DNA from: a virus
Taxonomy: Duplodnaviria > Caudoviricetes
IMG/VR virus record: IMGVR_UViG_3300033067_001629
Span: 1-45,076 of that record
DNA: 45,076 bases
Direction: 5' to 3' (one strand)
Below the pieces are notes generated by a model that searched no databases, was not told the DNA's origin, and worked only from the letters and a program-made list of their open reading frames with translations. Position numbers and translations under genes: made by a program. Positions 28,062 to 45,076 of this stretch are shown here, piece by piece. How positions within the stretch are numbered: the first letter of the stretch is position 1; the number at the start of each line of letters is the position of its first letter.

Positions 28062-28857
28062 CTTGAACTGTTGCACCATCCTGGCTGCCTTCTTTGGACT
28101 TCCTCAGCCCATCCCCATGTTTCTTAATCGCCAAATAAACACGTTCTTCGATCTCATCAGTAATGCTTCCGCCAATCCCCTTGGGCAACACATCACTAAC
28201 CGGCTTGTGGGCCACACCCGCCTTGGCTCGCAATTCTTCCCAGTCGCCGATAGTTGGGCAGAGTTCTAGCAGGGCTTCCAGCTTCTTCGTTCCCAATCCC
28301 TTGATTCCATCCAGCAACGGTGCTAACGACAACTCGCGCCAAGTTGTGTCTGCATTCACATCATCAACCTGGATGGCCGATGGTTCGCCTGCCGTAGCCA
28401 CAGCATCATCGATTTTCGATTTAGGCTGCGGGTAGTTTGGTCCGCGCTTGATTAGATTTCGCAAGTTGCGCAGCGCGGCCTTTTCGTCAGCCTTAATGTC
28501 TTTGAGTTCGTTTTCAAGTTCCGATCGCTTAACAGCCAGGGAAAAGTGATCTTCCTTGGCTGCGGATACTTCCAATTGATGGTGCTGTTCAGCTTGGAGC
28601 CGCCGTTGCTCTAGGCTGATTTCTTCCATGTGGTCGGTTAGTTCCTGAACAGTTCCATCGGGATCAATTACATTTAGTGTGGTCCAGTCGGTTGCCTGTT
28701 CCACTTCCTGGCTGAGCATCATCGTGTCTGCTTCGGCTTCGCTGAACCCATCCCCATTTACCAATTCAGCCGGGTCAGCATCACTCGCAACCACATTTTC
28801 AAACGTGTCCATGTCAACGTATTCAACTTCCAAAGCCATTTGCAAAATTCCTTTCAA
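28033..28857 (-). CDS. Hypothetical protein with coiled coil and HhH-like motifs
   Basis: LDGIKGLGTKKLEAL and LPKGIGGSITDEI. Confidence 0.65.
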   Translation of the reverse strand: MKGILQMALEVEYVDMDTFENVVASDADPAELVNGDGFSEAEADTMMLSQEVEQATDWTTLNVIDPDGTVQELTDHMEEISLEQRRLQAEQHHQLEVSAAKEDHFSLAVKRSELENELKDIKADEKAALRNLRNLIKRGPNYPQPKSKIDDAVATAGEPSAIQVDDVNADTTWRELSLAPLLDGIKGLGTKKLEALLELCPTIGDWEELRAKAGVAHKPVSDVLPKGIGGSITDEIEERVYLAIKKHGDGLRKSKEGSQDGATVQANTATVDSI

Positions 28858-29438
28858 ACCATTTCCAGTAATTCCACCGCATTCAACCCAAGGCCAACGT
28901 GAGCCTTTTCAATAGCTGACTGCCGTGCACTTCGCTTCAAATTCTTCTCCCACCACCGATGCAAAAACCAATAAGCCGACTGTTCAGCCAATCCTCTGCC
29001 ATCGCAAAACATCCATGGGACTTTGTAATCCTGTTGATAGGCCAGGATTGACCGAAACAATGTCTTGGCGTTTTGCTGGGCTGTTTTCTTGCCATATTCC
29101 GGCGAGTGCTTTAGCAAGTCACCAAGGTTGCACTCGACTATGACAACGGCACAATCAACCATGGAAAGATTTCGCAATTCACTTTCGAAACGCTCTCTGT
29201 GTCCATCATTGAACCCGAGAATCGTACTTTGGCAATCATCCATTGACTTTCGTTCAACATGGCACCGGCCGACGCCTCCTGCAACGGAGTAATCACCCAG
29301 TGAATTAGGGTAACGTCCGAGGCAACGGTGCTCGATTGCTGGAACTGTTTTGACGTACTTTTTGTCGGCATCGGATTTAATGTTTTGAAAGGTGAATGGA
29401 TGAATTTCCGCTGTATCGGTTATGATTGTGAATACCAT
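28854..29438 (-). CDS. ERCC4/XPF-type nuclease (possible resolvase)
   Basis: IITDTAE, LGDYS, VERKSMDD, RFESEL, VIVE. Confidence 0.85.
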   Translation of the reverse strand: MVFTIITDTAEIHPFTFQNIKSDADKKYVKTVPAIEHRCLGRYPNSLGDYSVAGGVGRCHVERKSMDDCQSTILGFNDGHRERFESELRNLSMVDCAVVIVECNLGDLLKHSPEYGKKTAQQNAKTLFRSILAYQQDYKVPWMFCDGRGLAEQSAYWFLHRWWEKNLKRSARQSAIEKAHVGLGLNAVELLEMV

Positions 29439-29566
29439 GTTTTTCCTTGCTTTTGCAACAATCTAAATCCGACTTCACACGCTTGAGCATGGATGCTCGA
29501 ATGCTCCGAATTGCTCATTAACTCTAGATTTTCTTCTATCCATTTTTTGCCGTCAAATCTAACCAC
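29420..29566 (-). CDS. 48-aa ORF resembling a truncated HNH C-terminus
   Basis: SD GGAGG, GTG start; ENLELMSNSEHSSIH; not in ORF track. Confidence 0.4.
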   Translation of the reverse strand: MVRFDGKKWIEENLELMSNSEHSSIHAQACEVGFRLLQKQGKTWYSQS

Positions 29567-29580
29567 AACTAACCCTCCAC

Positions 29581-29985
29581 TTAGCTATCCGTTCCACAAT
29601 ATTGAAAATCTTGTACATGCCACAGCGGAAAACCCTGCTCATACCGTTCAGCCAGCACATCAATCTTTTCTGGTGAGCCTGGCGCTGCTGACGTTGGTGG
29701 GAATTTAACATCGGTTTTCGGTTCGTACGCCAGCCACTCCAACACGCTTTGATGGCTTTCGTTAATCGCTTGTTTTGATGCTAACGGATCGCTTATTTGC
29801 TTTGGAATTTTACTTTTGGCTTGGCTGCCGTCGCTATTTTCGTCAGCCGGTTTATTCAGATTCCTTTCTGCCCACTTACGATCCGCCATGGCTTTGACAA
29901 ATGCAGTGTCGCGCCGCTTTTTCATTTTTTGGCGAATACGTTTTCTAATTTGATTTCGCAATGGATTTTTAGCTTTTGTAATCAT
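29581..29985 (-). CDS. Hypothetical protein with PTSAAPGSPEKIDVLAERYEQGFPLWH motif
   Basis: ATGA overlap with helicase stop sets start at 29985; motif recalled from Planctomycete small proteins. Confidence 0.65.
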   Translation of the reverse strand: MITKAKNPLRNQIRKRIRQKMKKRRDTAFVKAMADRKWAERNLNKPADENSDGSQAKSKIPKQISDPLASKQAINESHQSVLEWLAYEPKTDVKFPPTSAAPGSPEKIDVLAERYEQGFPLWHVQDFQYCGTDS

Positions 29986-32231
29986 ACGTTTGCTAGCTCC
30001 TGCTTTGCCTTGCCTTGTAAAATCAACTCGCGCAAAAAAGTTTTCCTGTGCCATATTTTACTTTGCTTGCACATGCGATCTGCCGTCGATCTGTTGCCAA
30101 GCATCCAGCATTTGAGCTTCGCTCGCGAAATCGCGGTATAAAGCCAAGAGCGATCACAGACCATCCGTGCTCCGGGGTAGTCATCCAGCATCACCACCAC
30201 CCATGGCCAGTCTGAACCTTGAGATTTATGGACTGACAGCGCATATCCCAACTCGAATGTGCAGCCACCTTCTTGACCAAAGTAGATTTCAATTTGTCTG
30301 GCCGGCGCATCCAAACTCAACACCATAGATTTTCGGTCAACGCTAATCACCTTGGCCAACTCACCATTGGCAACATAAACTTCCTCGCGTTCATTCACAT
30401 CGGCTAAAGTGTCGTCAGCATGTTCGTTTTGGGCTAACTTGAACCAGGCGTTTTTCGTATTAACCAACTTATCACCAATACGAAACGCAACGCCTTCCTC
30501 ACCTGGTTGCTTATTCAGCACTCGCTGCAATTCTCGATTTAACTCAACTCTGCTCAACGGGCTTTTCTCATTAACCGCTGTGATAATCTGAACATCCCAA
30601 ACCGGGTCTAATCCAGCATTCTTGGCCTGGTGGCAAATCTGGTTAATTCGTTCGGTCATCATGTCTGAGCGATCAGCAACCAGGTGAAGGTTATCGCCTA
30701 CGTCCCATTTGCGTTGATCCCGCATTGCCGCGCATGCTTCGACAATACCGCCGCTGTTCCTGATTATTTCGGTTAGCTCACCATAGCAGACGCCAGCGGC
30801 TATCATGTCTCGAAGTGGCGCACCGTGGCCGACTGGCGGCAACTGGTTTACGTCACCAACTAGCAGGACCATGGTTCCAGCAGCTCGGGCCCGCATGATC
30901 GCGGCCATGAGGTCAGTGTCCAACATTGATGATTCATCACCGATTAGCACCTTGGCCGGAAAGTGCGATAAATCTTTCATTTCTAATTGCATTAGCAGGC
31001 TATGCCATGTGCGAGCCCGCAACGGAATTTCTTTAGCAGACAAGTTTTCTGTCACGCGCACAGCAGATTTGCCTGTGGGTGCTCCAACCATGATGTTGTC
31101 TAGGCCAACAGTCTTGGCCATGGCTTTTACCAATTCACTAACGAGCCAAGTTTTCCCGGTTCCTGGTGATCCTCCGAGTACGCAAATTGACGATAGCAAC
31201 GCAACTCCGGCTATCTCGCGCTGATGGTCAGACAGTGCCAAGTCGGTTAGTTTAGGCCAGGAGAATCGTTCAGACTGAGCACGAACTATAACATCCGCTA
31301 TGCTTCGCTCGTTCCTTGCGCACCTGGCATCGGAAAACCATCGAGTATCACCACCCTGGCTGACCGGCCCGCGCTCTCCATCGGTCAAAATTTCATCCAG
31401 GATGTGGGCACGTTTGGCAAGCTCAACCGCCTTGTTGAACTTCAGGTCGGCACCACTGATGTTGGCCCGCAAATAAGCATCCGGCGTTTTCCATCCATAC
31501 CAAGTGTGACCATCAGTGTTTTGTTCTAGGCTGTACCATGTACACAACGCCTGACGCTTTAGCGCGGCTGGTGGCAATCCCAATTCCAAATACATCGCAT
31601 CGCATCGCTTAAAGCCACAGCCAGCAAACTTTAGCAACCGATATGGATTCTTGCGAATAATCTCTGCGCCGCGATTGCCCCATTCCTGGATGATGGTTTG
31701 CGTAATTGATTTCGGAAAGCCACGACCATTAAGCAAGGTGGTTAAGTCAAGTTTGATGGCTTCGGTGGTTTCATCGGCAGCCAGGGTGAGTGACATCGCT
31801 ATTGCGTTTTCTACTTTGTAACGATAGCCAGCTTGCGTCAGATACTTGCTAACGCGATCCGGTTCCGTTCTGGCGACGCGCACAGCATCTTGGCCGAATT
31901 CCTCCCAAAGTTTGGTTGCTCGCACTTTACCAAGGCCATGGCCAGCACCGTGATTGGCTAAGTAAGCGATGACGCTATCTCGATCAATGGGAGCGAGGGC
32001 CACGAAAGTTTGAAAGGAAAATTGCGGTTCTCCTTTGTACTTTGTCCAACGACCGAAAAAACGATATCGAATGCCTTGGGTAAGTTGTCCAAGTTCGGCA
32101 GGGCCTTTGATGGAGATAGAGCCGGTTTCTGTGTTGTGAGCATCGCCGACAATAACGTCGCCGGTATCGTTGGCGAATCGGTGGCGCTCGCGGATGAATT
32201 TGCCGGTGATTTCGATTAGTTGTTGTGCCAT
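29982..32231 (-). CDS. RecD2-like SF1B ATP-dependent helicase
   Basis: HhH GLGKVRA, NPYRL...GFKRCD, GSPGTGKT, APTGKSA, DESSM, LVGDVNQLPPVGHG, YALSVHKSQGS, LYTAISRAK. Confidence 0.92.
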   Translation of the reverse strand: MAQQLIEITGKFIRERHRFANDTGDVIVGDAHNTETGSISIKGPAELGQLTQGIRYRFFGRWTKYKGEPQFSFQTFVALAPIDRDSVIAYLANHGAGHGLGKVRATKLWEEFGQDAVRVARTEPDRVSKYLTQAGYRYKVENAIAMSLTLAADETTEAIKLDLTTLLNGRGFPKSITQTIIQEWGNRGAEIIRKNPYRLLKFAGCGFKRCDAMYLELGLPPAALKRQALCTWYSLEQNTDGHTWYGWKTPDAYLRANISGADLKFNKAVELAKRAHILDEILTDGERGPVSQGGDTRWFSDARCARNERSIADVIVRAQSERFSWPKLTDLALSDHQREIAGVALLSSICVLGGSPGTGKTWLVSELVKAMAKTVGLDNIMVGAPTGKSAVRVTENLSAKEIPLRARTWHSLLMQLEMKDLSHFPAKVLIGDESSMLDTDLMAAIMRARAAGTMVLLVGDVNQLPPVGHGAPLRDMIAAGVCYGELTEIIRNSGGIVEACAAMRDQRKWDVGDNLHLVADRSDMMTERINQICHQAKNAGLDPVWDVQIITAVNEKSPLSRVELNRELQRVLNKQPGEEGVAFRIGDKLVNTKNAWFKLAQNEHADDTLADVNEREEVYVANGELAKVISVDRKSMVLSLDAPARQIEIYFGQEGGCTFELGYALSVHKSQGSDWPWVVVMLDDYPGARMVCDRSWLYTAISRAKLKCWMLGNRSTADRMCKQSKIWHRKTFLRELILQGKAKQELANV

Positions 32232-32233
32232 GG

Positions 32234-32686
32234 TCAGATTTTTTGATCGTTGCTTTGTGGTGGTAGATGTTCAATCCATTTAATGATTTCTGCGAATGCA
32301 TCAGACTTTCCGTCAAAGTAGCAAGCCCATCTATCACTGCCTTTATGTTCTTCGGAACGCATTAATGATTTAGTTTCAACTTGCCTTTGCATCGCCCACA
32401 CTTTCAGCTTTTCAAAAATATTCATTTTGTTTTGACTGGTATTCCGCAACTCATCGCATCTTGAACATGAATCACCTCGCATTTGGTCGAATCCTTGAAC
32501 GCCGCAAACATGCTCGCTGACTTTTTTTCCTTCATTCAATGAAGTATCGCGAACATCACTAAAAAAGTCAGATTCACTTAACATTCTCTTTTTTTCATGT
32601 ATAGCAACTACTTCTTCTAAATTGGCTATTCGTTTGAAAGCTTTATCAATCGCCTCAGCAAAATCACATAGGGTTATTAATTGCAT
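32234..32686 (-). CDS. Hypothetical AT-rich protein with HxC...CxxC motif
   Basis: HVCGVQGF...CSRC; ATG 32686 preferred because upstream DNA is structured non-coding. Confidence 0.55.
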   Translation of the reverse strand: MQLITLCDFAEAIDKAFKRIANLEEVVAIHEKKRMLSESDFFSDVRDTSLNEGKKVSEHVCGVQGFDQMRGDSCSRCDELRNTSQNKMNIFEKLKVWAMQRQVETKSLMRSEEHKGSDRWACYFDGKSDAFAEIIKWIEHLPPQSNDQKI

Positions 32687-32699
32687 AATTTCACTTAAT

Positions 32700-32751
32700 A
32701 AAAAATGATACAAAAGCGCCGGCAGCCCCCTCTCACAAGAACTGCCGACGC
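32700..32751 (-). terminator. Intrinsic terminator-like hairpin
   Basis: Long stem 32716-32751 whose mismatches are G-U pairs only on the minus strand, followed by UUUU and U6. Confidence 0.55.
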
Positions 32752-32902
32752 CCCCGAGAGCCTTCCTGCCGTGGTTACAACGCCACTCACGGCTAGGCGG
32801 TGCCCAACGCACTTTACGCTTTCAAAACGGCTTCCATGCTCGCCGACATCTGCGATTGCTCTTTGGCCTCATTGCTTCTGTCTAGGATTACATGAAAGCG
32901 AT

Positions 32903-33514
32903 CTACACCGCCGACAAATCAACACCACCAGCCCGCGTGGACGTTATTTGACCAACCGGCGCTGTCTGCACAGCTACTTCCTTAGCAACTGCTTTGCGTA
33001 ACTGAACTGGGATTGCAGCAATACACGCAGCATCTAGTACCAACCCAGTTTTAGCCGCATCAGGATCATCAACATGCCAAATATCTGAGTAGTGCAAATC
33101 AACGCGGTCAGTATCAACGTACTTTCCGGTTAATTCATCCTTCTTTTGCTTCCAACCAAACTTAGCCACAATCTGCCGACCAACAGCATCACCAGGTTCA
33201 ACCATCGCTTTTTGGCCTGGTTGAAACTGTCCGATCAAACACGTCGCCAAACAGAATCGAGTGATCCGCTTACTGGCCTGGTCGCCTTTTTCCTTTGGCT
33301 TCCAAAACGTAATGTCGGTCGATCGATCCTTTTGTTGTTGATCGGTTCCGGCCAGCACAGAAAACGTTGCCTTAAACTCAGCATCCAATGGATTGCCGGA
33401 CTTATCAGCCGGATTCTCATCCACGGCGACAACCAGGAGGTGGTACACACCTGGATTGTCAATAAAGTTGCCACCACCGCCAAGTTCATCAGGTTGTTCT
33501 ACAGTTAAAGCCAT
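32903..33514 (-). CDS. ssDNA-binding-like protein (DUF669-like)
   Basis: SD AGGAG; NPGVYHLLVVAV N-terminus; beside ERF gene. Confidence 0.55.
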   Translation of the reverse strand: MALTVEQPDELGGGGNFIDNPGVYHLLVVAVDENPADKSGNPLDAEFKATFSVLAGTDQQQKDRSTDITFWKPKEKGDQASKRITRFCLATCLIGQFQPGQKAMVEPGDAVGRQIVAKFGWKQKKDELTGKYVDTDRVDLHYSDIWHVDDPDAAKTGLVLDAACIAAIPVQLRKAVAKEVAVQTAPVGQITSTRAGGVDLSAV

Positions 33515-33656
33515 TTTTCGTAATCTCCTAAAGTGAAGTTGTAAAAGTGATTCCATTAAAACCACGCACCTAAAACGTCAATCGTTGCAAACTTTTCAGC
33601 CTCAAGGACTGAATTAAATAAGGGTTCGCAAATACCCACCCGTTCATCCCACCGCT

Positions 33657-34739
33657 CTAGCCAGCGGCGGCCATCTCTAACATCGAAGCAAAAAAATTTG
33701 TGATGTTTTTCATTTCGATTGCTGCTTTCAATTCACTGGCCTGCTTAAAAGTCATATCGCTAACCTTACCAAACCCTGCACCGTTTAGACGCGCGACGAA
33801 ATCAGCAACCACACCTGGTTGCGATTGCTCCCACTCAGCCAAGGCAGTTTTGATTTCGCTTACCTGTTGATCGGTGCAAGGATCGTTGTCATTGCCTACG
33901 GCTATACCTGATTCGCTCACGCCGCCACTGGCAACCGTCTTGACGGCCATTGCAGCCAGGTTGGTGATGATGGTGGTAACCTGCTCTTGGCTAAGCTGGT
34001 TGATTGCAAACACGCCACGCTTGCTACAGATCGACTTCTTGCCATCGTCATCAATGCCGAGCTGCTCGCAAAGCTGATTGATTTTGGCGACCGATTCAGC
34101 CGATGCAAGTTCGCTTGGTTGTTTCGTTTCACCATTAAGAAAAGGCACCGCAGGAGCATCAGCCAGGGTGGTAACAACGGGACTTGCGGCCACGCTGTTT
34201 ACCGTTGCACCATCCCTGGTTGCCTCAACCTTGGCAGCGGCCTCTGCCATAAGCTCCTGCGGTGTTTTACGTGGTGTGGCCGGCGCGGCTGGCGTTGTCG
34301 GTTCCACATGGCCGTCGTTGTCATCGTCGATATTTAACGCGAGAATCGCACCCAATGCGTAACGTCGCTGATAGGTGATGACTGTGCCAATTGACTGCGG
34401 CGTAATTGCTTTCGATGCTGGACGATCGCCCGTTGCCTTTTCAACCACAGCCTCAATGGGTTGCATGGGATATTCCGAACTGATCCATTCGCCAGAAGAA
34501 TGGCTGATTATGGTAGTCAAGCCGAAGTTGGCTGTTGGATGTTGCTGGACGAGCAAACCGCAATCATTCAAAATTGGCTGGATGATTTCCAGGATGGTTG
34601 AAAGATCGGCGTACTTCGTTTTTAAAAATGGGTTTTTCGATAGCTTGGGAATCTTGGGACATTGCTTGTGAAATTCAATCATGGCTGTTGAGATAGCGGC
34701 GATTGAATCGGACATGCGGACTGGTGCGGATTGCGACAT
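33657..34739 (-). CDS. erf: ERF-family ssDNA annealing recombinase with C-terminal extension
   Basis: KNPFLKTKYADL, HSSGEWI, PQSIGTVITYQRRYAL, DDDNDG. Confidence 0.9.
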   Translation of the reverse strand: MSQSAPVRMSDSIAAISTAMIEFHKQCPKIPKLSKNPFLKTKYADLSTILEIIQPILNDCGLLVQQHPTANFGLTTIISHSSGEWISSEYPMQPIEAVVEKATGDRPASKAITPQSIGTVITYQRRYALGAILALNIDDDNDGHVEPTTPAAPATPRKTPQELMAEAAAKVEATRDGATVNSVAASPVVTTLADAPAVPFLNGETKQPSELASAESVAKINQLCEQLGIDDDGKKSICSKRGVFAINQLSQEQVTTIITNLAAMAVKTVASGGVSESGIAVGNDNDPCTDQQVSEIKTALAEWEQSQPGVVADFVARLNGAGFGKVSDMTFKQASELKAAIEMKNITNFFASMLEMAAAG

Positions 34740-34801
34740 GGTTGGAGGTTCCGTTGGGTTCTCGGTTCATAGTAATGATTGGTAAAAAATCGCAGCCGTT
34801 A

Positions 34802-35293
34802 TTACGCCCCATGCCGTAATGAAAAAACACCTACCAAAGCTTTATTTAAAAACTCATCCCTGGCTGCATTCGCCTCTTGAGGAGTATCGTAAACACCGAT
34901 GTGGACAGTCTTTCTGTTTACCTTAACTCTAGCCGACCACCTTCCAATACTCTTGTACCATGCAACACCTGTAAAGCCACTTGTATTGTTGCATTGCATT
35001 GGTCTATTGCGGTTGTTTGTGCTGCAACTTACGCTCCTCAAGTTGTCGATTCGATTATCTGATTTGTTTCCGTTGATGTGGTCTATTTCTTCAGGGTCGT
35101 ATCCGTACCACCATTTCCACACCAAGCGATGGACCAAACAAGTAGACTCCCTGTAAGTGATGCGCTTGTATCCTTTCGAATCCACCCAGCCAGACTTTCC
35201 GTCAAGTCTTGTAAACTCACCAGTTGCAGCGTTGTACGTGAAATCCATTTTTAGCATTTGTTGCTTCGGTAATGGTACTGACTTTGTTTTCAT
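34802..35293 (-). CDS. HNH endonuclease with AP2-like domain
   Basis: HRLVW, IDHINGNKSDNRIDNLR, NTSGFTGV, HIGVYDTPQEA. Confidence 0.92.
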   Translation of the reverse strand: MKTKSVPLPKQQMLKMDFTYNAATGEFTRLDGKSGWVDSKGYKRITYRESTCLVHRLVWKWWYGYDPEEIDHINGNKSDNRIDNLRSVSCSTNNRNRPMQCNNTSGFTGVAWYKSIGRWSARVKVNRKTVHIGVYDTPQEANAARDEFLNKALVGVFSLRHGA

Positions 35294-35430
35294 ATTTCCT
35301 TCCTATTAGTAGTTATTAAACGCGGTGGTTATTTGCAGCCCCACCGCTGGCGAGCCGCTAACGCTGCGGCTAAGCGTAGTTTCAGGCGAGAATTGCATAA
35401 CTCGCCCAGGACAGCAACAAGCCGCCCTGT

Positions 35431-35790
35431 TTACTTTTGAATCTCCGCATCGACATAAATCTGGCCGAGGCAACCTGGTGCTGACGCCTTTCTTGCTTCT
35501 ATTTGTGACTCAAATAAATCACTCACAGCGTATATACCATTGCCGTGCAAATACGCATTCATCCACCCGGTGATTCGCTTAGGCTTGCTGATAATATCAA
35601 GTTGATGTTCCGCAACCGTAGATGATAAACCGTTACTTTTCCAAGCCTTAACTAGCCATACACCATCGTTTAGTGTCGCGCCATGGACCGGGTAACCACC
35701 GCCACCATCAGTAGCATAAATCCGCACTGGCCGACCGTTGCGGGTCTGTAACTCTTCCGGCTTTGAAAAATCCAATTTCTCATCATTCAC
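35431..35790 (-). CDS. Conserved phage hypothetical protein
   Basis: QTRNGRPVRIYATDG motif. Confidence 0.7.
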   Translation of the reverse strand: MNDEKLDFSKPEELQTRNGRPVRIYATDGGGGYPVHGATLNDGVWLVKAWKSNGLSSTVAEHQLDIISKPKRITGWMNAYLHGNGIYAVSDLFESQIEARKASAPGCLGQIYVDAEIQK

Positions 35791-36686
35791 TACATCACCC
35801 CCATACGTCTCGCCACCCTGCTATTCAACACCACATCATTCCGCAAATATCCCAACGCCTTTTCCACATTCTCAGCATCCTTGCTATACAGCAACTTCCA
35901 AAAGTCGCTGCCGGTCATGCCTTCTGTCTTTGCTCCTTCGCCAAGCACGCGGCCAACAATGTCCAAGTTGGCAGGTACGCCATTACCACCGAAGCCGCGC
36001 ACGCCACATTCCCAGCAGCTACGCGTATCAATGAACACATTGGACAGATACCTCCATCCCTGATCCATGACATTCCTGGGAACATCTACACCCAAAATCC
36101 AAGAGCGGCGAATCAAAAATGGAATGTCAAAACCGGCGATGTTATGGCCGATCAGGTTTCCACCGGCCCGAGCAACAGGAACAAACCATTTGATCCAAAA
36201 TTCGTCAATGACATCGGCTTCGGCATCGTCATCGTAAATGTCGCCGACAACCAGAGTGTGGGTATTCTCGTTTGCATCACAAAAGCCGATGGCCAGCACG
36301 CGGCCGAGGATCGGGGACAGTGGAGCCTTTTCAATTTGCGTTAGCCAGTAGTCTGTTTCGGCGTTACTGATGCTGTTCTCGTGCGCGATGACAGCCAGGT
36401 TGTGAGCCTGCTTGGCTTCCTCAATTTTCATCATTATTTTTTCAGGGTCTTTGAGATTGCCAACGCGAACAGATCGCGGGTCAAACTCACCTGGGTGCGC
36501 AGGTGCCGAAAATGCCTCTGATAATGACTTGATTGTGTCGAGGTCATTTGGTCCTGACTCGATATCGAACACTGTGCCACCACTCCCTGGGTGACATCGT
36601 TGGCGGTATCGCTCTGGCTGTTCTTTGGCCGACAGTTCTTTAGCGGCGATTTCTTCTAGTTCATCGGTGATTTGTGGTGAGATCAT
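35790..36686 (-). CDS. 3'-5' exonuclease (DEDD/PolB-exo-like)
   Basis: VFDIES, GHNIAGFDIPFL, IDT, YLRNDV. Confidence 0.85.
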   Translation of the reverse strand: MISPQITDELEEIAAKELSAKEQPERYRQRCHPGSGGTVFDIESGPNDLDTIKSLSEAFSAPAHPGEFDPRSVRVGNLKDPEKIMMKIEEAKQAHNLAVIAHENSISNAETDYWLTQIEKAPLSPILGRVLAIGFCDANENTHTLVVGDIYDDDAEADVIDEFWIKWFVPVARAGGNLIGHNIAGFDIPFLIRRSWILGVDVPRNVMDQGWRYLSNVFIDTRSCWECGVRGFGGNGVPANLDIVGRVLGEGAKTEGMTGSDFWKLLYSKDAENVEKALGYLRNDVVLNSRVARRMGVM

Positions 36687-36782
36687 TTTGGCGACTCTCT
36701 TCAGTTAAAAATTAAAAACCGCACCCTTCAGCCTCCCAACATCCAGGTGGATAGAACGCAACCCTCGCTTGTGTCGACAGTC

Positions 36783-37220
36783 CTAAAAGCCGACTACATC
36801 CTGACAGTCCATTGTCAGTTCCGTTACTCGCAATAGTTCATGGGCACGCATCGCATCGCTAAAAGTGAATGGCATTGTTGGATCGTCTGCCAAATCAAGG
36901 ATGTGCGTGAAAGTGTCCTGAATGGTTGATTCATCGTATTGCCATCGCCAGAAGTGGCCAGAGTCTGACCAGTAGTTGATGGTGCGTATGCCTCGTGGCG
37001 TTGTCGGCATGGTGACTGAAGCAATCGTCCCCGATTCTTCGTACTCAGCAGCCAGCTTTTGCTTTTTCTTTTCAATGTCCGAAAGATACCTAGCAACCTC
37101 TGATCCATCAAACACAGGCCGTCTCGCCTCACTGCCAACATCAAAGCCCAACAGCCAATCGACAAGTTGCGACAAGGACGCACGCAACTGTTCCCAGCCA
37201 ATTCGAAGATTAACGACCAT
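36783..37220 (-). CDS. Hypothetical protein
   Basis: ORF in operon orientation. Confidence 0.6.
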   Translation of the reverse strand: MVVNLRIGWEQLRASLSQLVDWLLGFDVGSEARRPVFDGSEVARYLSDIEKKKQKLAAEYEESGTIASVTMPTTPRGIRTINYWSDSGHFWRWQYDESTIQDTFTHILDLADDPTMPFTFSDAMRAHELLRVTELTMDCQDVVGF

Positions 37221-37296
37221 GATGCAAAATTCCTTTCAGCCAAAATGATGTTGTCAAAACCAGCAATATTGAGAGCGTGACGAGGACAGTTTCCAT
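37210..37296 (-). CDS. 28-aa hydrophobic peptide
   Basis: METVLVTLSILLVLTTSFWLKGILHHGR*; fills the gap; not in track. Confidence 0.4.
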   Translation of the reverse strand: METVLVTLSILLVLTTSFWLKGILHHGR

Positions 37297-37304
37297 GGTT
37301 ATGT

Positions 37305-38309
37305 TCAGCCCAATTTCCTCTTGGTTCTCGCGTCAATCATTTTTTTGTGCAGTGATAATAATTTTTTTGGAGTGATTCCTGGAAGCGAAGAAAAGCGATC
37401 AAAATCAATCGTGCTGTCTTTAAGAAGGAGGCATCCACCAAGATCGCTTGCGATGCTTAGATACCTATCTAAAAATTCACTTCTAGACATGCCAGTGTCT
37501 AAATCAAAGCAGATTACTGATGGCTCTTGCTGGCAGAAGAATCCAGCGCTGTGATTAGTTGCGTTACTGTCGCCGGTGTTACAGTCGCCGATGTTCCAGT
37601 GGCCGGTATTCCTGTGGCCGGTGTTACTGTCGCCGGTGTTACTGTCGCCGGTGTTACAGTCGCCGATGTTCCTGTGGCCGGTGTTACTGTCGCCGGTATT
37701 CCAGTGGCCGGTGTTCCTGTTGCCGGTGTTCCTGTCGCCGGTATTCCAGTGGCCGGTATTCCTGTGGCCGGTGTTACTGTCGCCGGTATTCCTGTGGCCG
37801 GTGTTACTGTCGCCGGTATTCCAGTGGCCGGTGTTACTGTCGCCGGTGTTACAGTCGCCGATGTTCCTGTGGCCGGTATTCCAGTGGCCGGTGTTCCTGT
37901 TGCCGGTGTTCCTGTCGCCGGTATTCCAGTGGCCGGTGTTCCTGTGGCCGGTGTTACTGTCGCCGGTATTCCTGTGGCCTCCAATCAACACTTCTTCTAC
38001 AAGTCGTATCCTCTTGCAAACCAGCTTGAAATTCGCGCCCGGTTCACGAGGAATATCAAGAACACCCTGGGCTTCGACCTTCCAGATTCTAGTTGTCGGA
38101 TCAGTGTAGTAGCACCATGGTCCAGACGGTTGTTCGCAAAAGTGAAACCCACTTTCACAGAGCTTTAGCTCACCGGCGTACTCATGCCACTCACCAGGAA
38201 TAAACTGGTAATCGCGGCATTTGATATCTTTGTCAGTGGCTTTGTAGCCGGTGATAATTGCTTCAGTTTCTGGAGTTGCTTCAGTTGTTGGAGTTGCTTC
38301 GTTGCTCAT
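37305..38309 (-). CDS. Phage protein with GYK...GFHFC N-domain and G-x-x-N-[TI] pentapeptide repeats
   Basis: SD AAGGA; LKLCESGFHFCE; 28 repeats. Confidence 0.85.
   Translation of the reverse strand: MSNEATPTTEATPETEAIITGYKATDKDIKCRDYQFIPGEWHEYAGELKLCESGFHFCEQPSGPWCYYTDPTTRIWKVEAQGVLDIPREPGANFKLVCKRIRLVEEVLIGGHRNTGDSNTGHRNTGHWNTGDRNTGNRNTGHWNTGHRNIGDCNTGDSNTGHWNTGDSNTGHRNTGDSNTGHRNTGHWNTGDRNTGNRNTGHWNTGDSNTGHRNIGDCNTGDSNTGDSNTGHRNTGHWNIGDCNTGDSNATNHSAGFFCQQEPSVICFDLDTGMSRSEFLDRYLSIASDLGGCLLLKDSTIDFDRFSSLPGITPKKLLSLHKKMIDARTKRKLG
37560..37979. repeat. 28 x 15-bp coding tandem repeat with a 105-bp higher-order duplication
   Basis: Units 1-7 and 13-19 (offset 180 bp) differ at one base. Confidence 0.95.
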
Positions 38310-38337
38310 TATCTATTCCTTGTGTTGTTGGTTGGTT

Positions 38338-38406
38338 GCCAGCTCCATCCAAGTCACCCCTGACCAGATTTCGCCGCCCTGCGCCGCTGTAGGTTAGTTT
38401 GCAGCT
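38338..38406 (-). ncRNA. Candidate trans-acting RNA complementary to the primase leader
   Basis: 11+9+6 nt colinear complementarity to 41593-41622; internal hairpins CAGG/UCUG and GGUCA/UGACU. Confidence 0.55.
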
Positions 38407-38679
38407 CTAACTGAAATAGCCGCAGCAAATCTCTTGGAATGTTTCATGGCGAAACGGAACGCCATCGCGAAAGCAGGTGATCGCGACCGCGATAATGTCG
38501 CCATGGTCTGCTTGGCCAATCATGTCGGCTAGTTGATCTACCTCTGACTCAACATCAAACGAATGAGCAAATTCGCGAGCCTCAGCCAGGTTGGTAAAAA
38601 TCCTGACGGGTATGTCGTTGTAGGTAGCAGCGATTGTCACTAAGTAGTGACGGACTGGCTTAGGTGGTCGCTTAACCAT
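38407..38679 (-). CDS. Hypothetical protein (first gene of leftward early operon)
   Basis: SD GGAGG; 90 aa. Confidence 0.7.
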   Translation of the reverse strand: MVKRPPKPVRHYLVTIAATYNDIPVRIFTNLAEAREFAHSFDVESEVDQLADMIGQADHGDIIAVAITCFRDGVPFRHETFQEICCGYFS

Positions 38680-38804
38680 CGCGTGGCCTCCGGTGGAATT
38701 TAGAATCCTGAACCGGCTTGATGTTGCCCACTAGAGGGTGGACTAAAGAAGCCGTTAGTTAAAACCGATGCGTTGTTGGCTTCTCACGACCAACAACACA
38801 CGAA

Positions 38805-38832
38805 AGAATAACAAATGTTTCGACCGCTGCAA
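38805..38832 (-). promoter_or_regulatory. Leftward sigma70-like promoter (PL-like)
   Basis: TTGCAG (38832-38827), 16 nt, TGnTATTCT (-10 at 38810-38805). Confidence 0.6.
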
Positions 38833-38842
38833 TAGCAGTTGA

Positions 38843-39064
38843 TCAATTTTTCTTTGAAAAGTTCGGATTGCCTTTTTGCACATGACAAAGTTGGTGGATT
38901 CTTTTCACTTCTGACTTAGTGAAAAGCCTTATCTTTGTTGGCCCAAACGGCGTTCCAATCTCATTCTCTTTAGCAATACGATTTATCGTTGCCTTGTGGA
39001 CGCCAAGTTCCACTGCGACATCGTAAGCAGATTTAAATTGTGAAAGGTCTTGCATTCTTATCAT
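38843..39064 (-). CDS. Small HTH DNA-binding protein (repressor/Cro/excisionase-like)
   Basis: SAYDVAVELGVHKATINRIA; RLFTKSEV wing-like motif; divergent from integrase. Confidence 0.8.
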   Translation of the reverse strand: MIRMQDLSQFKSAYDVAVELGVHKATINRIAKENEIGTPFGPTKIRLFTKSEVKRIHQLCHVQKGNPNFSKKN

Positions 39065-39070
39065 GCCTCA

Positions 39071-39099
39071 ATCATAGTCAAAAGTGCTGATCGCTGCAA
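39071..39099 (-). promoter_or_regulatory. Promoter for HTH gene (probably leaderless)
   Basis: TTGCAG (39099-39094), 17 nt, TATGAT (39076-39071); +1 predicted at ATG 39064. Confidence 0.6.
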
Positions 39100-39326
39100 T
39101 TACGACACAAAAAAACGACGACAGAAGTTGAGAAGCGGCTACTAACGGAAGCCACCGATTTGCGAGCAAATCCATCTGTCGTCGAATGGGCGAGGAATCA
39201 CTAGACACTTAACCAGCACAATCACTACAACCAAACCGTGCGTTTTTGCGCACATCCGCAATCCGTTGGACACTAAGCAAACGGCAACGTAGAGGATGGA
39301 ATCTCACTACTTTTAGGGGTCCATCT

Positions 39327-40232
39327 ATGAAACTCACCGAATTCTTTACAGTCCATTACCAGCCCAAGAGATTGCACGGAAAAAGCAAGAACACAGTCAG
39401 GTTGTATGAGGTTTGCTTTCGAAACATGGCGCGGACGCTTGGCCGTGATCCAACCCTGGCTGACCTAACGAACGAAAACATTTCAGCCCACATGCAACGT
39501 TTGCTGGATGAAGGCCGAAGCAAGGCAACAGCCAATAAAGAACGCTGCCAGCTCGTCGCCTTATGGCGTTATGCTTCACGAATTCGCATGATTGATGGCT
39601 GGCCGGATGTTCCGAAAGAGCAGGAGCCGGCGCGGGTGCCAATGGCCTGGACTCGCGAGGACATAGACAAGCTATTACAGGCTTGTGCGCGAACCGAAGG
39701 GACAATAAAGGACAGCAGCATCCCAAACTGGTTGTGGTGGACAACGTTGGTCCGCATCATGCTGGATACTGGCGAGCGAGTTGGCGCGGTCACGGCAGCC
39801 AGGTGGAGTTGGATCGAAAATGGATCGATTCTCATTCCTGCCGAAGCACGCAAGGGAGCCAAGCGAGATAAATGGTTTGCTTTGTCGCCGCAGACTATGA
39901 TTTACATTTCGCAGCTCCGTAAACTAACCGCGGGTGATCGGGTGTTTTATTGGCCCTACTGCTCAACTTATTTATGGAACCGATACCAACGAATTCTAGC
40001 TTCTGCTGATCTTCCAACTGGACGCAAGAGCAGCACGCACAGACTAAGGAAAACGCACGCTTCTGTTGGTTTTGCGGCTGGGCTCGATCCGCAGGAATTG
40101 TTAGACCACACGGATAGGAGGACTACCCAAAGATATTTAGACCCCAGATTCTCCCGAGAAATCCAACCATCCAAAATAATAGCCGACTGGTTGAGAAACC
40201 CGCCAAAGGTGGAGAAACGGAAGCAAGCCTGA
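39327..40232 (+). CDS. int: Tyrosine recombinase/integrase
   Basis: SAM-like N-domain; DTGER, HRLRKT, LDH...TTQRY catalytic residues; ATG 39327 with SD AGGGG. Confidence 0.9.
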   Translation: MKLTEFFTVHYQPKRLHGKSKNTVRLYEVCFRNMARTLGRDPTLADLTNENISAHMQRLLDEGRSKATANKERCQLVALWRYASRIRMIDGWPDVPKEQEPARVPMAWTREDIDKLLQACARTEGTIKDSSIPNWLWWTTLVRIMLDTGERVGAVTAARWSWIENGSILIPAEARKGAKRDKWFALSPQTMIYISQLRKLTAGDRVFYWPYCSTYLWNRYQRILASADLPTGRKSSTHRLRKTHASVGFAAGLDPQELLDHTDRRTTQRYLDPRFSREIQPSKIIADWLRNPPKVEKRKQA

Positions 40233-40241
40233 CAAATTTGG

Positions 40242-41072
40242 CTAATTCCAGTCAGTGATCAACGGCAAGAATCTTTGCTCGCGCCGAAGTTGATAAACCT
40301 CAAATGTGGTTTTGTGCTTGTCTCTGAATTCGTGATTAAGCAAGTTTTGATTGCATGAATCACATACAAGCCAAGTTTCGTGTACGCGATTGCGACCCTT
40401 GGAAAACCAGTGATCATAATGAGCATTGATGCGATTTTGACCAGCATCTAACACTATGGCATTCTGGCAGCATGGGCACTTACTACTGAAATACGTAGCC
40501 ACAGTTTCGATATGACAACGCTTGGTCGCAATGGTTAATTCCCTGCGTTTTTCTATTGCATCAATGCGGCTGTTTACCTCTTGAAAACCGCTGATCATTT
40601 CGGTTTTGACAGTTTCTACCTTGCTTTCGATAAGACCTATTTTGCTTTCGATTGGCTTTAGGCCAAGCTGAAGGCCTTCACGAATACCCCTTGCGATTTC
40701 GTAGCCTATGAGGTGATTGGATGGCAACTGCTGTACTGAGCGAAAGTAATGCTCAACCAGCGCGTCCTGCACTTTCCATGCAAGGTCATCACGAAAGGCT
40801 TTGACAAGCATGAGGTAGCCGGACTGAGTAAGCAAAATGCAATCGCGTCCACCGCCATGGTCTTTCAACTCCAATCGACGAAATTCGTCGGTTGGAATCT
40901 CAAAGAAATGTTTGCCTTCCTGCATTTTATCGCGGTGCTTGCGGAAATTGCGACCAGCGGTTCCGCTTGGCCTAGCGTGCAATTCATCAACCATAGAAAG
41001 AGTGACCACCCGTTCACCCAGGTAATCAACTCTGCGGAGACTTCCGATCGAAGCTACAATATCAGTGCTCAT
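40242..41072 (-). CDS. ORF6N-domain antirepressor-like protein fused to an HNH-like Zn domain
   Basis: YLGERVVTLSMVDELHARPSGTAGRNF...LLTQSGYLMLVKAFRDDLAWKVQ; C-terminal CPCC...HYDH...N...CDSCN. Confidence 0.85.
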   Translation of the reverse strand: MSTDIVASIGSLRRVDYLGERVVTLSMVDELHARPSGTAGRNFRKHRDKMQEGKHFFEIPTDEFRRLELKDHGGGRDCILLTQSGYLMLVKAFRDDLAWKVQDALVEHYFRSVQQLPSNHLIGYEIARGIREGLQLGLKPIESKIGLIESKVETVKTEMISGFQEVNSRIDAIEKRRELTIATKRCHIETVATYFSSKCPCCQNAIVLDAGQNRINAHYDHWFSKGRNRVHETWLVCDSCNQNLLNHEFRDKHKTTFEVYQLRREQRFLPLITDWN

Positions 41073-41205
41073 TCCATTTCCCTTGGTGTGAGACGGGCTA
41101 GCAGGGTGTCCGGCGTCTCACTTCCAAAACACCCCGCTAGCCGACTTTTTCAGGACAGCAAGCAATTTAGCTTGGTTTTTGTGGTATTACCCCCATCAAG
41201 AGAAA

Positions 41206-41550
41206 ATGGCAAAAATGAGCGAGTTGCCAAAACCAGTCCGCGCACGCCCGGTTGTTGCCGCACCTCCACCGCAAAAGCCTGCACAGCAGCCAAACCAACA
41301 GCCAGTTAAGAAGCCGGTCACGATCGAGACATTGGCCTATGAACTGAGAGAAATTCGGTTGTTTCTTGCTAGTCGCGCGGAATGTACGCGGCAAACTGGA
41401 CGTATTTGGATGGTGATAGGCGGTATAACAGGCTGCTCATTGTTTCTGGCATCCACATCACTCCTGGGTGCTCTTGGTTGTGTAGCCGGCTGGTTGTTGT
41501 TTATTGTTGGTGTCGGACTGCAAAGCACGGAACGTCAAACACTCGACTAA
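41206..41550 (+). CDS. Membrane protein, two TM helices (possible superinfection exclusion)
   Basis: Pro-rich N-terminus then two hydrophobic segments. Confidence 0.6.
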   Translation: MAKMSELPKPVRARPVVAAPPPQKPAQQPNQQPVKKPVTIETLAYELREIRLFLASRAECTRQTGRIWMVIGGITGCSLFLASTSLLGALGCVAGWLLFIVGVGLQSTERQTLD

Positions 41551-41559
41551 AAAACTATC

Positions 41560-41587
41560 TTGACTTAGCTACATCCCATGCTAAATT
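41560..41587 (+). promoter_or_regulatory. Sigma70-like promoter of primase gene
   Basis: TTGACT (41560-41565), 16 nt, TGcTAAATT (-10 at 41582-41587). Confidence 0.65.
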
Positions 41588-41592
41588 ACTCG

Positions 41593-41658
41593 CACCCCTG
41601 ACCTAGCCGCCCTGTTGCCGCTTTTCATCCATAAGGAAGGAAAGCGAGCAACATGGCT
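41593..41658 (+). promoter_or_regulatory. SD/AUG-sequestering hairpin with 5' toehold in primase leader
   Basis: 41605-41630 pairs with 41635-41658 (about 22 bp, AUAA loop). Confidence 0.7.
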
Positions 41659-44208
41659 CGATTTGATTTAGACCGGATAAAGCAACTATCCGTTGGACGT
41701 TGGCCCGAAATCTTGGGCCTTGGCGCTGATCTTGTAAACATGCGCCACCACCCTTGCCCAAAATGCGGTGGTAATGATCGCTTCAGAGCGTTAGACGATT
41801 TCCGCATTTCCGGTGCGGTTATCTGCAATCAATGCTTCAACAAGAGCAACGGGGATGGGATCGCAACCTATTCCTGGTTGCACAGTTGCACCACAGCCCA
41901 AGCAATTGAGCAGATCGCCGATAAGCTCGGTGTGGAGCCGATCAGCCAGGGTAAGAGTAAAAGCAAGTCAGGCAGCTCTACCCATCCGAAACGCTCAGCC
42001 GAAAGCCAGTTTTCACTTCGGCCGCTACCGGAATCTATCGCCGCGATCTTTGCAGCCAGGAAAGGTGGTATCCAGGCCGGAGCGCTTGAGTACCTTGGCG
42101 CCCATGTCGGCAACCACTTCGGCGCCAGTGTCATCGCTCTGCCAATCAGGAATGCGGCCGGTGCAACCATCGGGTTTACCGCGGCTAACGCAACCGGTGG
42201 AAAAATCACAATCAGCTATCCAGATAGTGAGAGTGAAACCACAAGCTGGAAAAATGTAATAGATTCCAAGCAAAAGGGGATCATTGCCACTCCCGGGCTG
42301 TTTAACGCAGCAACCCGGTCAAACATTACCAAAGTCTACAAAACAGAGGGGCCGAGCGATCTACTGGCCATTATTCCGTTTCTGCAGCCAGGTGAGGAAG
42401 CCTTTTGCAATCCGTGCGGCGCTGGCGAAAACCCGGTCAACTTCACCTGGTTGCTGGAATGGCTGGACGGCAAGACGGTGGTAGTTATCCACGACAGGGA
42501 CAAGGCCGGGGTGGATGGTGCAATTGGTGATCCGGCGCGAGCTCGTCTTGGCTGGGCTACATGGGCGGCACAGTCTGCCGGTGAAGTCAGGAATGTTGAA
42601 CTACCATTCCCCCTGGTTGATACGCATGGAGGGGATTTTCGGCAGTGGGTGATTGATGGTGGCGACAGGGAAAACCTCGAGGATTTGGTTCGATCATCTC
42701 AGGTAGTCGAGGAATCAACCGTTGCGATCGTGGAATCTGAAGACGATCCGCACCGGTTAGCTCGAGTCAATATGAGCAAGTACATGCGGGATCACAACAG
42801 GCGGCTGATTTACTGGCAATCAGAGTGGTACCGGTGGAAGGCAGGCAAATACATCAAAATTGAATCGGACGAATTAAAGGCGAAGGTGTCCAATGCGGTA
42901 AGGTCTGAATTTGAGTTGCTTTGGCCGTCCAAGCTCGAGAAGTACAACGAATGGAGAGCAAGCGAAAAATATGATCCGATGATCGACAAAGGGCCACCAC
43001 CAATTCAAAAGGTTACTAGGAATTTGGTTTCCAATGTGATTGGCGCCATGGAAGGCATGGCCGCAATACCCGGGTCAATCAGAATGCCATGCTGGTTGCC
43101 AGATCGATCCTCGAGACATTATGTGTCAATGGGCAACGGAATCCTTGACCTAGACAAGGTTTGCGATGGGAAGCCAATGGAGGAATTCTTGCTTCCACAT
43201 TCCCACGAATGGTTTTCTACTTTCCAACTTCAATACGACTACTCCAAAACGGCCCAGTGTCCAAAGTGGCTCGATTACGTTGATTACGTGATGAGCGGCG
43301 ACAGGGATAGGATCGCAATTCTTCAAGAGTGGGCCGGTTATCTACTGACTCCAACCAATGATTATCAAAAATTTCTTGTGCTCGAGGGCGAGGGACAGAA
43401 CGGGAAAACCGTTTACTTTGCAGCGATAAGGGCAATGTTGGGAGAGGAAAATATCTCGAATGTGCCGCTCGAGAATTTTGGCGGGCAGTTCGATTTGGAA
43501 TCAACGCTTGGCAAGGCGGCCAATATTTCTGGCGACACGGACGAGCTGGACCGGGTGTCGGAAGGTGCGCTAAAGAAGTTCACCGGTGGCGATACCATGC
43601 AGTTTGATCGAAAAAATATCAAACAGATATCAGCCAGGCCGACAGCAAAACTTATGTGTGCTTGGAATAAACGACCACACTTCCGAGATAGATCAAAGGG
43701 CCTTTGGCGCCGCATGGTGCTCATTCCGTTTGATCGTGTGATACCAGAGGAAAGACGAGTCCTGGGAATGGACAAGCCTGAATGGTGGCTCGAGAGTGGT
43801 GAGGTGCCCGGCATTTTGCGGTGGGCGATTATTGGTTTGGACCGGCTAAGGGAAAACAAACGGTTCACTGCTTCAGAAAAATCCAATGAAGAAATGACCG
43901 ATTACCAGAAGGAAACAAATCCAGCTCGAGAATTTTTGCTCGATCATATCGAATTCAGGCAGGATTCAGAAATAAATTGCAGCACTCTTTACCAGCTTTA
44001 CAGTATTTGGTGCGAGGAAAACGGACATAAAAAACCACTCGCAAACAACTCTTTCGGAAAAGAAGTCGCAAGATGCTTTCCAAATGTCACCAAAAAAAGA
44101 GAGGAATACAAAAACAACAACTCTCGACCGTGGCTTTACGATGGGCTTGGATTCACGGTTGACAGAATATGTGGGAGGGGCGTCTACCTTGGAGAAGAAA
44201 TAAATTAA
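41653..44208 (+). CDS. P4-alpha-like primase-helicase (Zn finger, TOPRIM, D5-like SF3 helicase)
   Basis: HHPCPKCGGNDRF...CNQC; TEGPSD, HDRD; GEGQNGKT; LKKFTGGD; GLWRRM; winged-helix C-terminus. Confidence 0.92.
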   Translation: MARFDLDRIKQLSVGRWPEILGLGADLVNMRHHPCPKCGGNDRFRALDDFRISGAVICNQCFNKSNGDGIATYSWLHSCTTAQAIEQIADKLGVEPISQGKSKSKSGSSTHPKRSAESQFSLRPLPESIAAIFAARKGGIQAGALEYLGAHVGNHFGASVIALPIRNAAGATIGFTAANATGGKITISYPDSESETTSWKNVIDSKQKGIIATPGLFNAATRSNITKVYKTEGPSDLLAIIPFLQPGEEAFCNPCGAGENPVNFTWLLEWLDGKTVVVIHDRDKAGVDGAIGDPARARLGWATWAAQSAGEVRNVELPFPLVDTHGGDFRQWVIDGGDRENLEDLVRSSQVVEESTVAIVESEDDPHRLARVNMSKYMRDHNRRLIYWQSEWYRWKAGKYIKIESDELKAKVSNAVRSEFELLWPSKLEKYNEWRASEKYDPMIDKGPPPIQKVTRNLVSNVIGAMEGMAAIPGSIRMPCWLPDRSSRHYVSMGNGILDLDKVCDGKPMEEFLLPHSHEWFSTFQLQYDYSKTAQCPKWLDYVDYVMSGDRDRIAILQEWAGYLLTPTNDYQKFLVLEGEGQNGKTVYFAAIRAMLGEENISNVPLENFGGQFDLESTLGKAANISGDTDELDRVSEGALKKFTGGDTMQFDRKNIKQISARPTAKLMCAWNKRPHFRDRSKGLWRRMVLIPFDRVIPEERRVLGMDKPEWWLESGEVPGILRWAIIGLDRLRENKRFTASEKSNEEMTDYQKETNPAREFLLDHIEFRQDSEINCSTLYQLYSIWCEENGHKKPLANNSFGKEVARCFPNVTKKREEYKNNNSRPWLYDGLGFTVDRICGRGVYLGEEIN

Positions 44209-44321
44209 AAAACAAAAACGAAAACGAAATGAAAATAAAAAATAAAAAATAAAACAAAATTAAAAAATAAAAAACTAAAAATCAAACTGAAAAAAATTTT
44301 TCAGCTCAAAAAACGCTCTGA

Positions 44322-44530
44322 TTGTCCAAGTTGTCCTAGTTTTTGTCCAAGTTCTGTCCAAGTTGGAAAGTGCGTTTCACCTTTGTTTTTGTTGGTTTGT
44401 CCAAGTTGTCCTAGTTATTTCTTTATTTTATTAAAAATAGTAGTAGTAAATATATATAGGTAAGGCAAAGGCACAGGCAGAGTAATAGTGGGAATAGCAA
44501 AAACTAGGACAACTAGGACAACCTGGACAA
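44322..44530. repeat. Iteron array, putative replication origin
   Basis: (T/C)TGTCC(A/T)AG x6 at 44322, 44331, 44343, 44354, 44397, 44406; three inverted copies at 44504, 44513, 44522; AT-rich core 44415-44460; right after primase. Confidence 0.8.
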
Positions 44531-45076
44531 TGCCGCGATGGAAATAAAAAATGGTTTTGCATTCCGATGTAAAAAATGGTTTGGAAAAAATTTTTTCTCA
44601 GCCACCCGATGACGAAAAAATAATTTCGAAAAATCAACTCGAAAAAATTTTTTGTCAATCACACCCAACCGCACGCCAGTGGCGACCACTAGGCCAACTA
44701 GCATCACCCTGGCTGTGTGAAATTTGCTCGCCTCCACCGAATGCAAAAATGGTGGGGAGCTGGTCAGGTGATCCATCCCTGGCTGACACTCGCGCTAGCG
44801 AACATGAGCACCAGGGAGCGGGATCATCGTTGGTCACTACACGAAGTCATGCCGACAGACAGCCGACCTACCAACCATCACCACCCATCACCATCAACTA
44901 CGAACAGCCAGCCTGCCCCACATGCCATTGCTCTTGGATCGTGGAGGTTGACCTACCAACATCACTCGCGTTACGATGTTGGTCATGCAAGCGTGATCTC
45001 ACAACCGACGACCTAGCACGCGAGCTATCTACACCGAAGCCTCCACGGACAATCAACCAACATCGACAATGGGCCG

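Follow-up and report, generated by a model that had tools for sequence, protein, structure and literature searches.

How does a phage keep its primase in step with its early genes when the primase gene lies outside the early operon? The question is raised by virus record IMGVR_UViG_3300033067_001629 (Caudoviricetes), of which the window analysed here is the complete 45,076 bases. The plus strand carries the terminase, portal, capsid and tail genes to about 28 kb. The early cluster that follows lies on the minus strand and encodes an ERCC4 nuclease, RecD2, ERF, an HNH protein, an exonuclease, a pentapeptide protein, a 90-amino-acid (aa) open reading frame (ORF) and a 73-aa helix-turn-helix (HTH) protein. 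Beyond it stand, in order, a tyrosine integrase, an ORF6N antirepressor-like gene, a small ORF and a P4-family primase-helicase. In the window, as in the related locus L036, the primase gene is set apart from the early operon and has its own predicted promoter and a leader that is predicted to lock its translation start. In the window, a spacer of the early operon is complementary to this leader. From sequence comparison and RNA folding, we consider activation of primase translation in trans the most likely function of this leader-trigger pair, and hold this reading with moderate confidence. The coordinates of the features are collected in Table 1.

The primase promoter named in a preliminary description of this DNA was recovered by a consensus scan, which returned 7 sites against 8.6 expected by chance. 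It is supported by L036, the one locus of the close clade that was recovered, which keeps both hexamers and their spacing around a changed spacer sequence. Downstream of it, positions 41594-41608 are predicted to be unpaired and to precede the hairpin, as is the case in L036; the extent of this free 5' end depends on the predicted transcription start (+1). Positions 41609-41630 then pair with 41635-41657 in the predicted fold (-30 kcal/mol), forming a hairpin that would sequester the ribosome-binding site (RBS) and the start codon. The predicted stem over the Shine-Dalgarno sequence (SD) and AUG is as described before, but with 20 pairs from 41609 instead of about 22 from 41605. Opening the ribosome footprint of the primase (-17 to +13) is predicted to cost 26.0 kcal/mol, the highest value among 27 phage genes (2.0-17.1 kcal/mol for the others). 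A weak terminator-like hairpin around the primase AUG was rejected as a feature, being absent in L036.

The candidate key to this lock lies in an early-operon spacer flanked by the minus-strand ORFs 38407-38679 and 37305-38309. All three blocks that this spacer had been said to share with the leader were found at the positions given for them. Block 1, CACCCCTGACC, occurs at 38355 and 41593 and nowhere else, and block 3, GCCGCT, occurs at 38383 and 41617. Block 2, GCCGCCCTG, occurs at 38373 and 41606, and also in a further copy at 35421 that had been overlooked. Being antisense, the early transcript would form the 26 Watson-Crick pairs counted earlier (11, 9 and 6, or 25 in all if the +1 is 41594), covering both toehold and stem. 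The duplex is interrupted, with 2 nucleotides (nt) between blocks in the leader versus 7 in the trigger. Against leader positions 41593-41630 the trigger reaches -57.6 kcal/mol, the best of 4477 windows on both strands (runner-up -41.1 kcal/mol), and none of 15 shuffled genomes reached this energy (mean -40.5, best -44.8 kcal/mol). Under a sequence-alignment null with three scorings, 0, 0 and 1 of 100 shuffles reached the trigger score; all-against-all spacer alignments were too permissive and were not used. The partial copy at 35420 is predicted to bind weakly (-8 versus -20 kcal/mol). The spacer in which it lies (35290-35431, minus strand) contains four predicted hairpins and, besides this 12-nt copy, a short stretch similar to the sequence that flanks the trigger on its 5' side.

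A non-colinear block at 38343-38351, which had been proposed to extend the duplex, could form 9 pairs (2 of them G-U). It did not hold up in comparison: the L036 leader lacks the partner, the X7 contig of a relative deletes 41627-8 and the matches of the X3 contig go no further than 38353. A consensus scan of the minus strand found no promoter or terminator flanking the trigger. A discrete trigger RNA is therefore not indicated, and the trigger is probably part of the early mRNA. In the local fold, block 1 of the trigger is predicted to close a small hairpin around a GGGG loop. The Rfam scan of 28000-45076 gave two matches at chance level (E 3.9 and 4.7) and no family for leader or trigger.

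Cofolding of leader and trigger lowers the predicted cost of opening the SD alone from 12.5 kcal/mol to about 4 (3.4-4.0) kcal/mol, and that of opening the footprint from 26 to 13.7-15.9 kcal/mol. With 60 shuffled triggers, SD opening averaged 11.0 kcal/mol and was never below 6.9 kcal/mol, versus 3.9 kcal/mol with the real trigger. In the mechanism that we propose, the primase would be transcribed outside the early operon from its own promoter, with a leader folded over the RBS and start codon. The early-transcript stretch 38355-38388, acting as part of the early mRNA or as a processed piece, would likely pair with the leader's free 5' end, then invade the stem at its base and turn on translation of the primase. 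The upper stem that remains may be melted by branch migration or by the ribosome.

The comparison with L036 is consistent with a partner in trans. The gene order is that of the window (HTH gene, integrase, small ORF, leader, primase), at 56% identity of the primase and about 59% identity of the DNA in coding regions. Of the blocks, the L036 leader retains block 3 in full, 10 letters in block 1 and 6 in block 2, and it is predicted to fold into a 16-pair stem over the SD, with a footprint opening of 22.6 kcal/mol. In the 5' arm at 41616-41625 all 10 letters are identical, and the 3' partner changes at two pairs (to G-U) and loses a bulge; outside 41616-41625, stem pairs change on both sides. 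Such additional constraint on one arm and on an unpaired tail would be the expected effect of a partner in trans. The best partner of the L036 leader in the window is again the trigger. Further evidence comes from contigs of relatives, derived from four runs of four studies, which cover leader and trigger (in X4 the trigger is covered only from 38366). The X3 contig match starts exactly at 38353, and one X7 variant joins other DNA exactly at 41593. Among the indels listed (12 of 48), those of X7 flank the trigger and, in the leader, shorten the apical stem only. Among the substitutions listed (40 of 494), none falls in leader or trigger and 14 fall in the neighbouring 90-aa ORF.

Gene order in more distant relatives suggests why a key might be needed. 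Thirty-three loci combined a primase with at least one early gene, and in 28 of them all lie on one strand with the primase downstream as the last gene of the early operon. Nineteen of these 28 have a reliable start (9 were left out), with opening costs of 2.4-13.5 kcal/mol and no lock; block 1 occurs in none of the 28. The simplest reading is that a trans-acting key restores in the window and L036 the coupling that relatives obtain from co-transcription. In L131, L181 and L183-L185 the early genes lie opposite the primase, matches start at primase residue 221-228 and block 1 is absent. These five appear as Planctomycete-type phages with a shortened primase; ORF maps were inspected for three of them, and none of the five was searched for leader and trigger.

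Searches for further carriers were samples, so that their negative results apply to the sequences searched. A single-protein scan of viral sequences found no further phage with both elements. Leader/trigger patterns matched 1, at least 120 and 26 stretches of viral contigs, none of them, among the matches listed, with the leader before a primase, and were found in none of the 401 genomes of the order of genome G001. The primase profile was detected in 10 of 401 family genomes, all of them outside the close clade. Eighty integrase loci from viral contigs included none with the primase, and the two-box geometry of L036 (see below) was present in none of those with enough upstream DNA.

The preliminary description had proposed that the trigger activates primase translation. 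Folding energies, gene order and the conservation seen in L036 back both the lock and the key, but the activation itself is predicted and partial. Several observations weigh against it. The best of the 60 shuffled triggers gives a footprint opening of 15.5 kcal/mol versus 15.0 for the real one, a value (about 15) that still exceeds those of most genes. When 550 nt of the early mRNA are folded, pairing takes up most of the trigger blocks; this would hinder access, except for a processed piece or for binding during transcription. The L036 leader favours the window trigger by only 1.5 kcal/mol, and the pattern of a lock together with a detached primase represents two related phages and one evolutionary event. 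For relatives' triggers, the comparison covered the 40 of 494 substitutions and 12 of 48 indels listed, short of a complete reading of any trigger and of its covariation with the leader. Finally, the cofold retains an upper stem of 7 and 3 pairs on part of the SD. This last point is equally what would be expected if the pairing were real but silencing, with the primase mRNA cut by a nuclease or terminated, or with an abundant leader acting on the early mRNA. Precedent also favours silencing, as most phage antisense RNAs covered in the available part of a review repress (PMC12197685), and P4 CI is described, in the part available, as halting replication genes by termination (PMC4825925). We nevertheless hold silencing to be rather unlikely: the leader is already locked, so that extra repression gains little, replication is needed while the early genes are on, and the duplex is interrupted. 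Binding of the leader also leaves the start of the downstream early gene unchanged (2.8 versus 2.4 kcal/mol).

The match between leader and spacer also weakens under permissive scoring, where it becomes unremarkable (score 19, against at least 19.5 in 10 of 300 shuffles and at least 19 in 5 of 26 leaders of other genes), and no trigger copy was found in the 2.9 kb of upstream DNA of L036, a contig that ends inside the early cluster. Both points, like the third partial copy, would fit a hairpin that merely keeps primase translation low and a second copy that is a duplication remnant or a chance match kept by mosaicism. The probability of this explanation seems low to us. It leaves unexplained that in L036 the unpaired toehold and one arm are more conserved than the hairpin would require, and that homology borders of the contigs fall on block 1; the duplex null argues against it as well.

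Quite unlikely, too, are binding sites for a phage protein, be it on RNA or, as operator sites at the primase +1 and within the early operon, on DNA. Block 1 does lie at the predicted +1, a palindrome GTCA-N4-TGAC is present at 38353 and both copies have the same orientation on DNA. The palindrome is, however, only half present in both leaders, the spacing of the blocks differs between the copies, the RNA copies are of opposite sense and a repressor gene was not found in the protein sets searched with Pfam and PHROGs. That the two copies are attL and attR of a 3.2-kb integrase-bearing element, as direct repeats flanking a tyrosine integrase might suggest, is scarcely credible, since excision would take out both the early and the primase promoters and since relatives of the integrase have tRNA 3' ends just upstream of the integrase gene, as the window and L036 do by likeness.

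Activation of the primase may itself be subject to a second antisense pair, which the preliminary description had not mentioned. A predicted small structured RNA (39109-39184) exposes two boxes of 8 nt, each of which occurs once more in the genome, as its complement in the spacer behind the HTH gene. This layout recurs in L036 (at about 1280-1355 and 935-985), with the same 27-nt target spacing. Box b shows three compensatory changes between these two phages, and cross pairs retain box a only, as would fit a specificity box that co-varies with its target. We infer that this RNA is a candidate immunity RNA like P1 C4 or P4 CI; Rfam C4-type models gave no match to it in the scan of 28000-45076. 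The immunity-target pattern had 11 viral matches, all without proteins of the window, and none in 401 class genomes. In both phages a U-rich run follows directly on box b, so that its duplex could take the place of a terminator hairpin, or else could block a weak stem that resembles a terminator. Transcription of the early operon reaches this target before the trigger, which suggests a cascade from loss of the immunity RNA through read-through and trigger to primase. In a lysogen, the second RNA would pair with its two boxes after the first early gene and halt transcription before the trigger, leaving a locked primase mRNA and no key; on lytic read-through the key would be made and replication would start at the adjacent iterons.

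In its full form, this would be a two-step RNA cascade for lysis and lysogeny without a CI protein, in which a C4-like RNA from a tRNA trailer terminates the early operon in trans, and escape yields the spacer trigger that unlocks the primase mRNA. We put it forward tentatively, as a possibility that we would sooner doubt than assume. The second pair alone was reached by 57 and 89 of 5000 shuffles, and its effect might run in either direction. The tRNA link comes from an attP-like stretch directly 5' of the small RNA, at about 1362-1375 in L036. Several integrase relatives bear tRNA 3' ends at the same spot, as judged by eye, and a tRNA-Val of G001 is matched there in 12 letters by L036 and in 9 by the window; the first att pattern tried gave no tRNA match. 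Speculatively, the small RNA might in a prophage form the trailer of a host tRNA. If the cascade is true, a natural mRNA-to-mRNA toehold switch gates replication. Taken together, the two antisense pairs would suggest that phages of Planctomycetes can have a control circuit made of RNA only.

Table 1. Positions of the leader, the trigger and neighbouring features in the window.
Feature	Position	Strand	Basis or remark
Primase promoter, predicted sigma70-type with TG-extended -10	41560..41587	+	Consensus scan; conservation in L036
Toehold, predicted unpaired 5' end of leader (block 1 and start of block 2)	41593..41608	+	Folding
Leader hairpin, 20 predicted pairs, over SD (41633-41644) and AUG	41609..41657	+	Folding
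P4-family primase-helicase, 851 aa	41653..44208	+	Pfam Zn_Ribbon_Prim, DUF5906, Pox_D5; homologues named P4 family primase
Trigger, three blocks antisense to toehold and lower 5' arm	38353..38388	-	Early-operon spacer; duplex energies, shuffles
Partial third copy, 12 nt, block 2 region	35420..35431	-	Another early spacer
Non-colinear extra block	38343..38351	-	Unsupported
Predicted small structured RNA (closing stem, U7 tail), candidate C4/CI-like immunity RNA	39109..39184	-	Box b' 39141-39148 in hairpin loop, box a' 39129-39136
Target in early transcript, spacer behind HTH gene	38752..38786	-	Box a 38779-38786 in hairpin loop; box b 38752-38759 directly before U-rich run
attP-like stretch resembling tRNA 3' end	39185..39193	-	Putative; directly 5' of small RNA
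73-aa HTH gene, first early gene	38843..39064	-	Possibly excisionase-like, from position and size
90-aa ORF without known family	38407..38679	-	Between attenuator target and trigger
Tyrosine integrase	39327..40232	+	Pfam and PHROGs protein searches
Direct and inverted TTGTCC repeats	44322..44530		A+T-rich DNA behind primase

The phage is temperate. It has an integrase and an antirepressor-like gene, and a CI-type repressor was not recognised among the 30 proteins searched with Pfam and the 30 searched with PHROGs, two overlapping sets; absence of a repressor is not proven by this, because many of the searched proteins match no family. All primase homologues that bear an organism name are from Planctomycetes, and the host is therefore probably a Planctomycete. 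Among the homologues, primases P0001-P0019 show 53-89% identity, some of them on contigs of 46-80 kb. The A+T-rich region with the TTGTCC repeats spans 44200-44660; the repeats are likely origin iterons, a role that we assume from P4. The interval between integrase and primase (40242-41550), with the ORF6N antirepressor-like gene and a small hydrophobic ORF, is a variable cassette that is replaced or skipped in X3, X7 and L036. The pentapeptide-repeat protein at 37305-38309 contains DUF7666 and a 15-bp tandem array, and the X3 and X6 contigs stop matching before it; a plus-strand promoter match at 38230-38258 was rejected, as it lies inside this gene, which X3 and X6 do not share. Within the early cluster, a strong 20-pair hairpin with a U-rich tail at 32700-32740 (minus strand) is a possible terminator or processing site.

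In a literature search that had most subscription journals outside its coverage, no publication turned up in which an early transcript unlocks the primase mRNA of the same phage, and none on antisense control in Planctomycete phages or on an immunity RNA from a tRNA trailer. The preliminary description had implied that trans-acting RNAs of phages only repress. This is contradicted by IsrK of Gifsy-1 and PreS of lambda, which activate translation in trans. According to the available parts of the sources, IsrK of the Salmonella prophage Gifsy-1 competes in trans with a cis helix, turns on an inactive phage mRNA and promotes induction; it is itself a short, discrete isoform of the transcript that it targets, orf45-anrP (PMC4825925). 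In the window, in contrast, key and lock lie in separate divergent units, the key apparently belongs to an intergenic stretch of the early mRNA, and its target would be the replication primase-helicase. PreS (LPR1) of phage lambda exposes the sequestered RBS of a replication gene and supports lytic replication (bioRxiv 10.1101/2024.10.31.621285; review PMC12197685, both available in part). It is an Hfq-bound small RNA with a short seed and a host target, dnaN, whereas the window has a target gene of the phage itself, 26 pairs and a 5' toehold. Pairing of DsrA and RprA with rpoS, and of RyhB with shiA, likewise frees the RBS through the 5' arm of an inhibitory stem; these are discrete chromosomal small RNAs, for which the accessible text gives no dedicated one-to-one toehold (PMC13501541).

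The second RNA resembles C4 and CI in its two short boxes, one of them variable and setting specificity, and in its early-transcript target (PMC5320573, PMC4825925, as far as available). The C4 RNAs of P1 and P7 differ in specificity through such a variable box (PMC5320573), and P4 CI controls replication genes via premature termination (PMC4825925). Unlike C4 and CI in these accounts, the second RNA lies upstream of the early promoter and behind a tRNA-like attachment site, not inside its target operon, and its control of replication would be indirect, via the trigger. The leader-trigger pair, a member of no Rfam family, would work like an anti-antisense activator. If activation is true, it shows that a gene that has departed from its operon can be re-coupled by RNA pairing alone. 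The pair shares with engineered toehold switches, as described in the available part of PMC9071393, a single-stranded 5' toehold, an RBS hairpin and a trigger matching toehold and stem. Those switches are synthetic and have continuous complementarity, whereas in the window the duplex is interrupted, the SD is directly paired and the upper stem is uncovered. If our reading is true, the pair is a natural counterpart of the engineered toehold switch, gating the phage's own replication gene.

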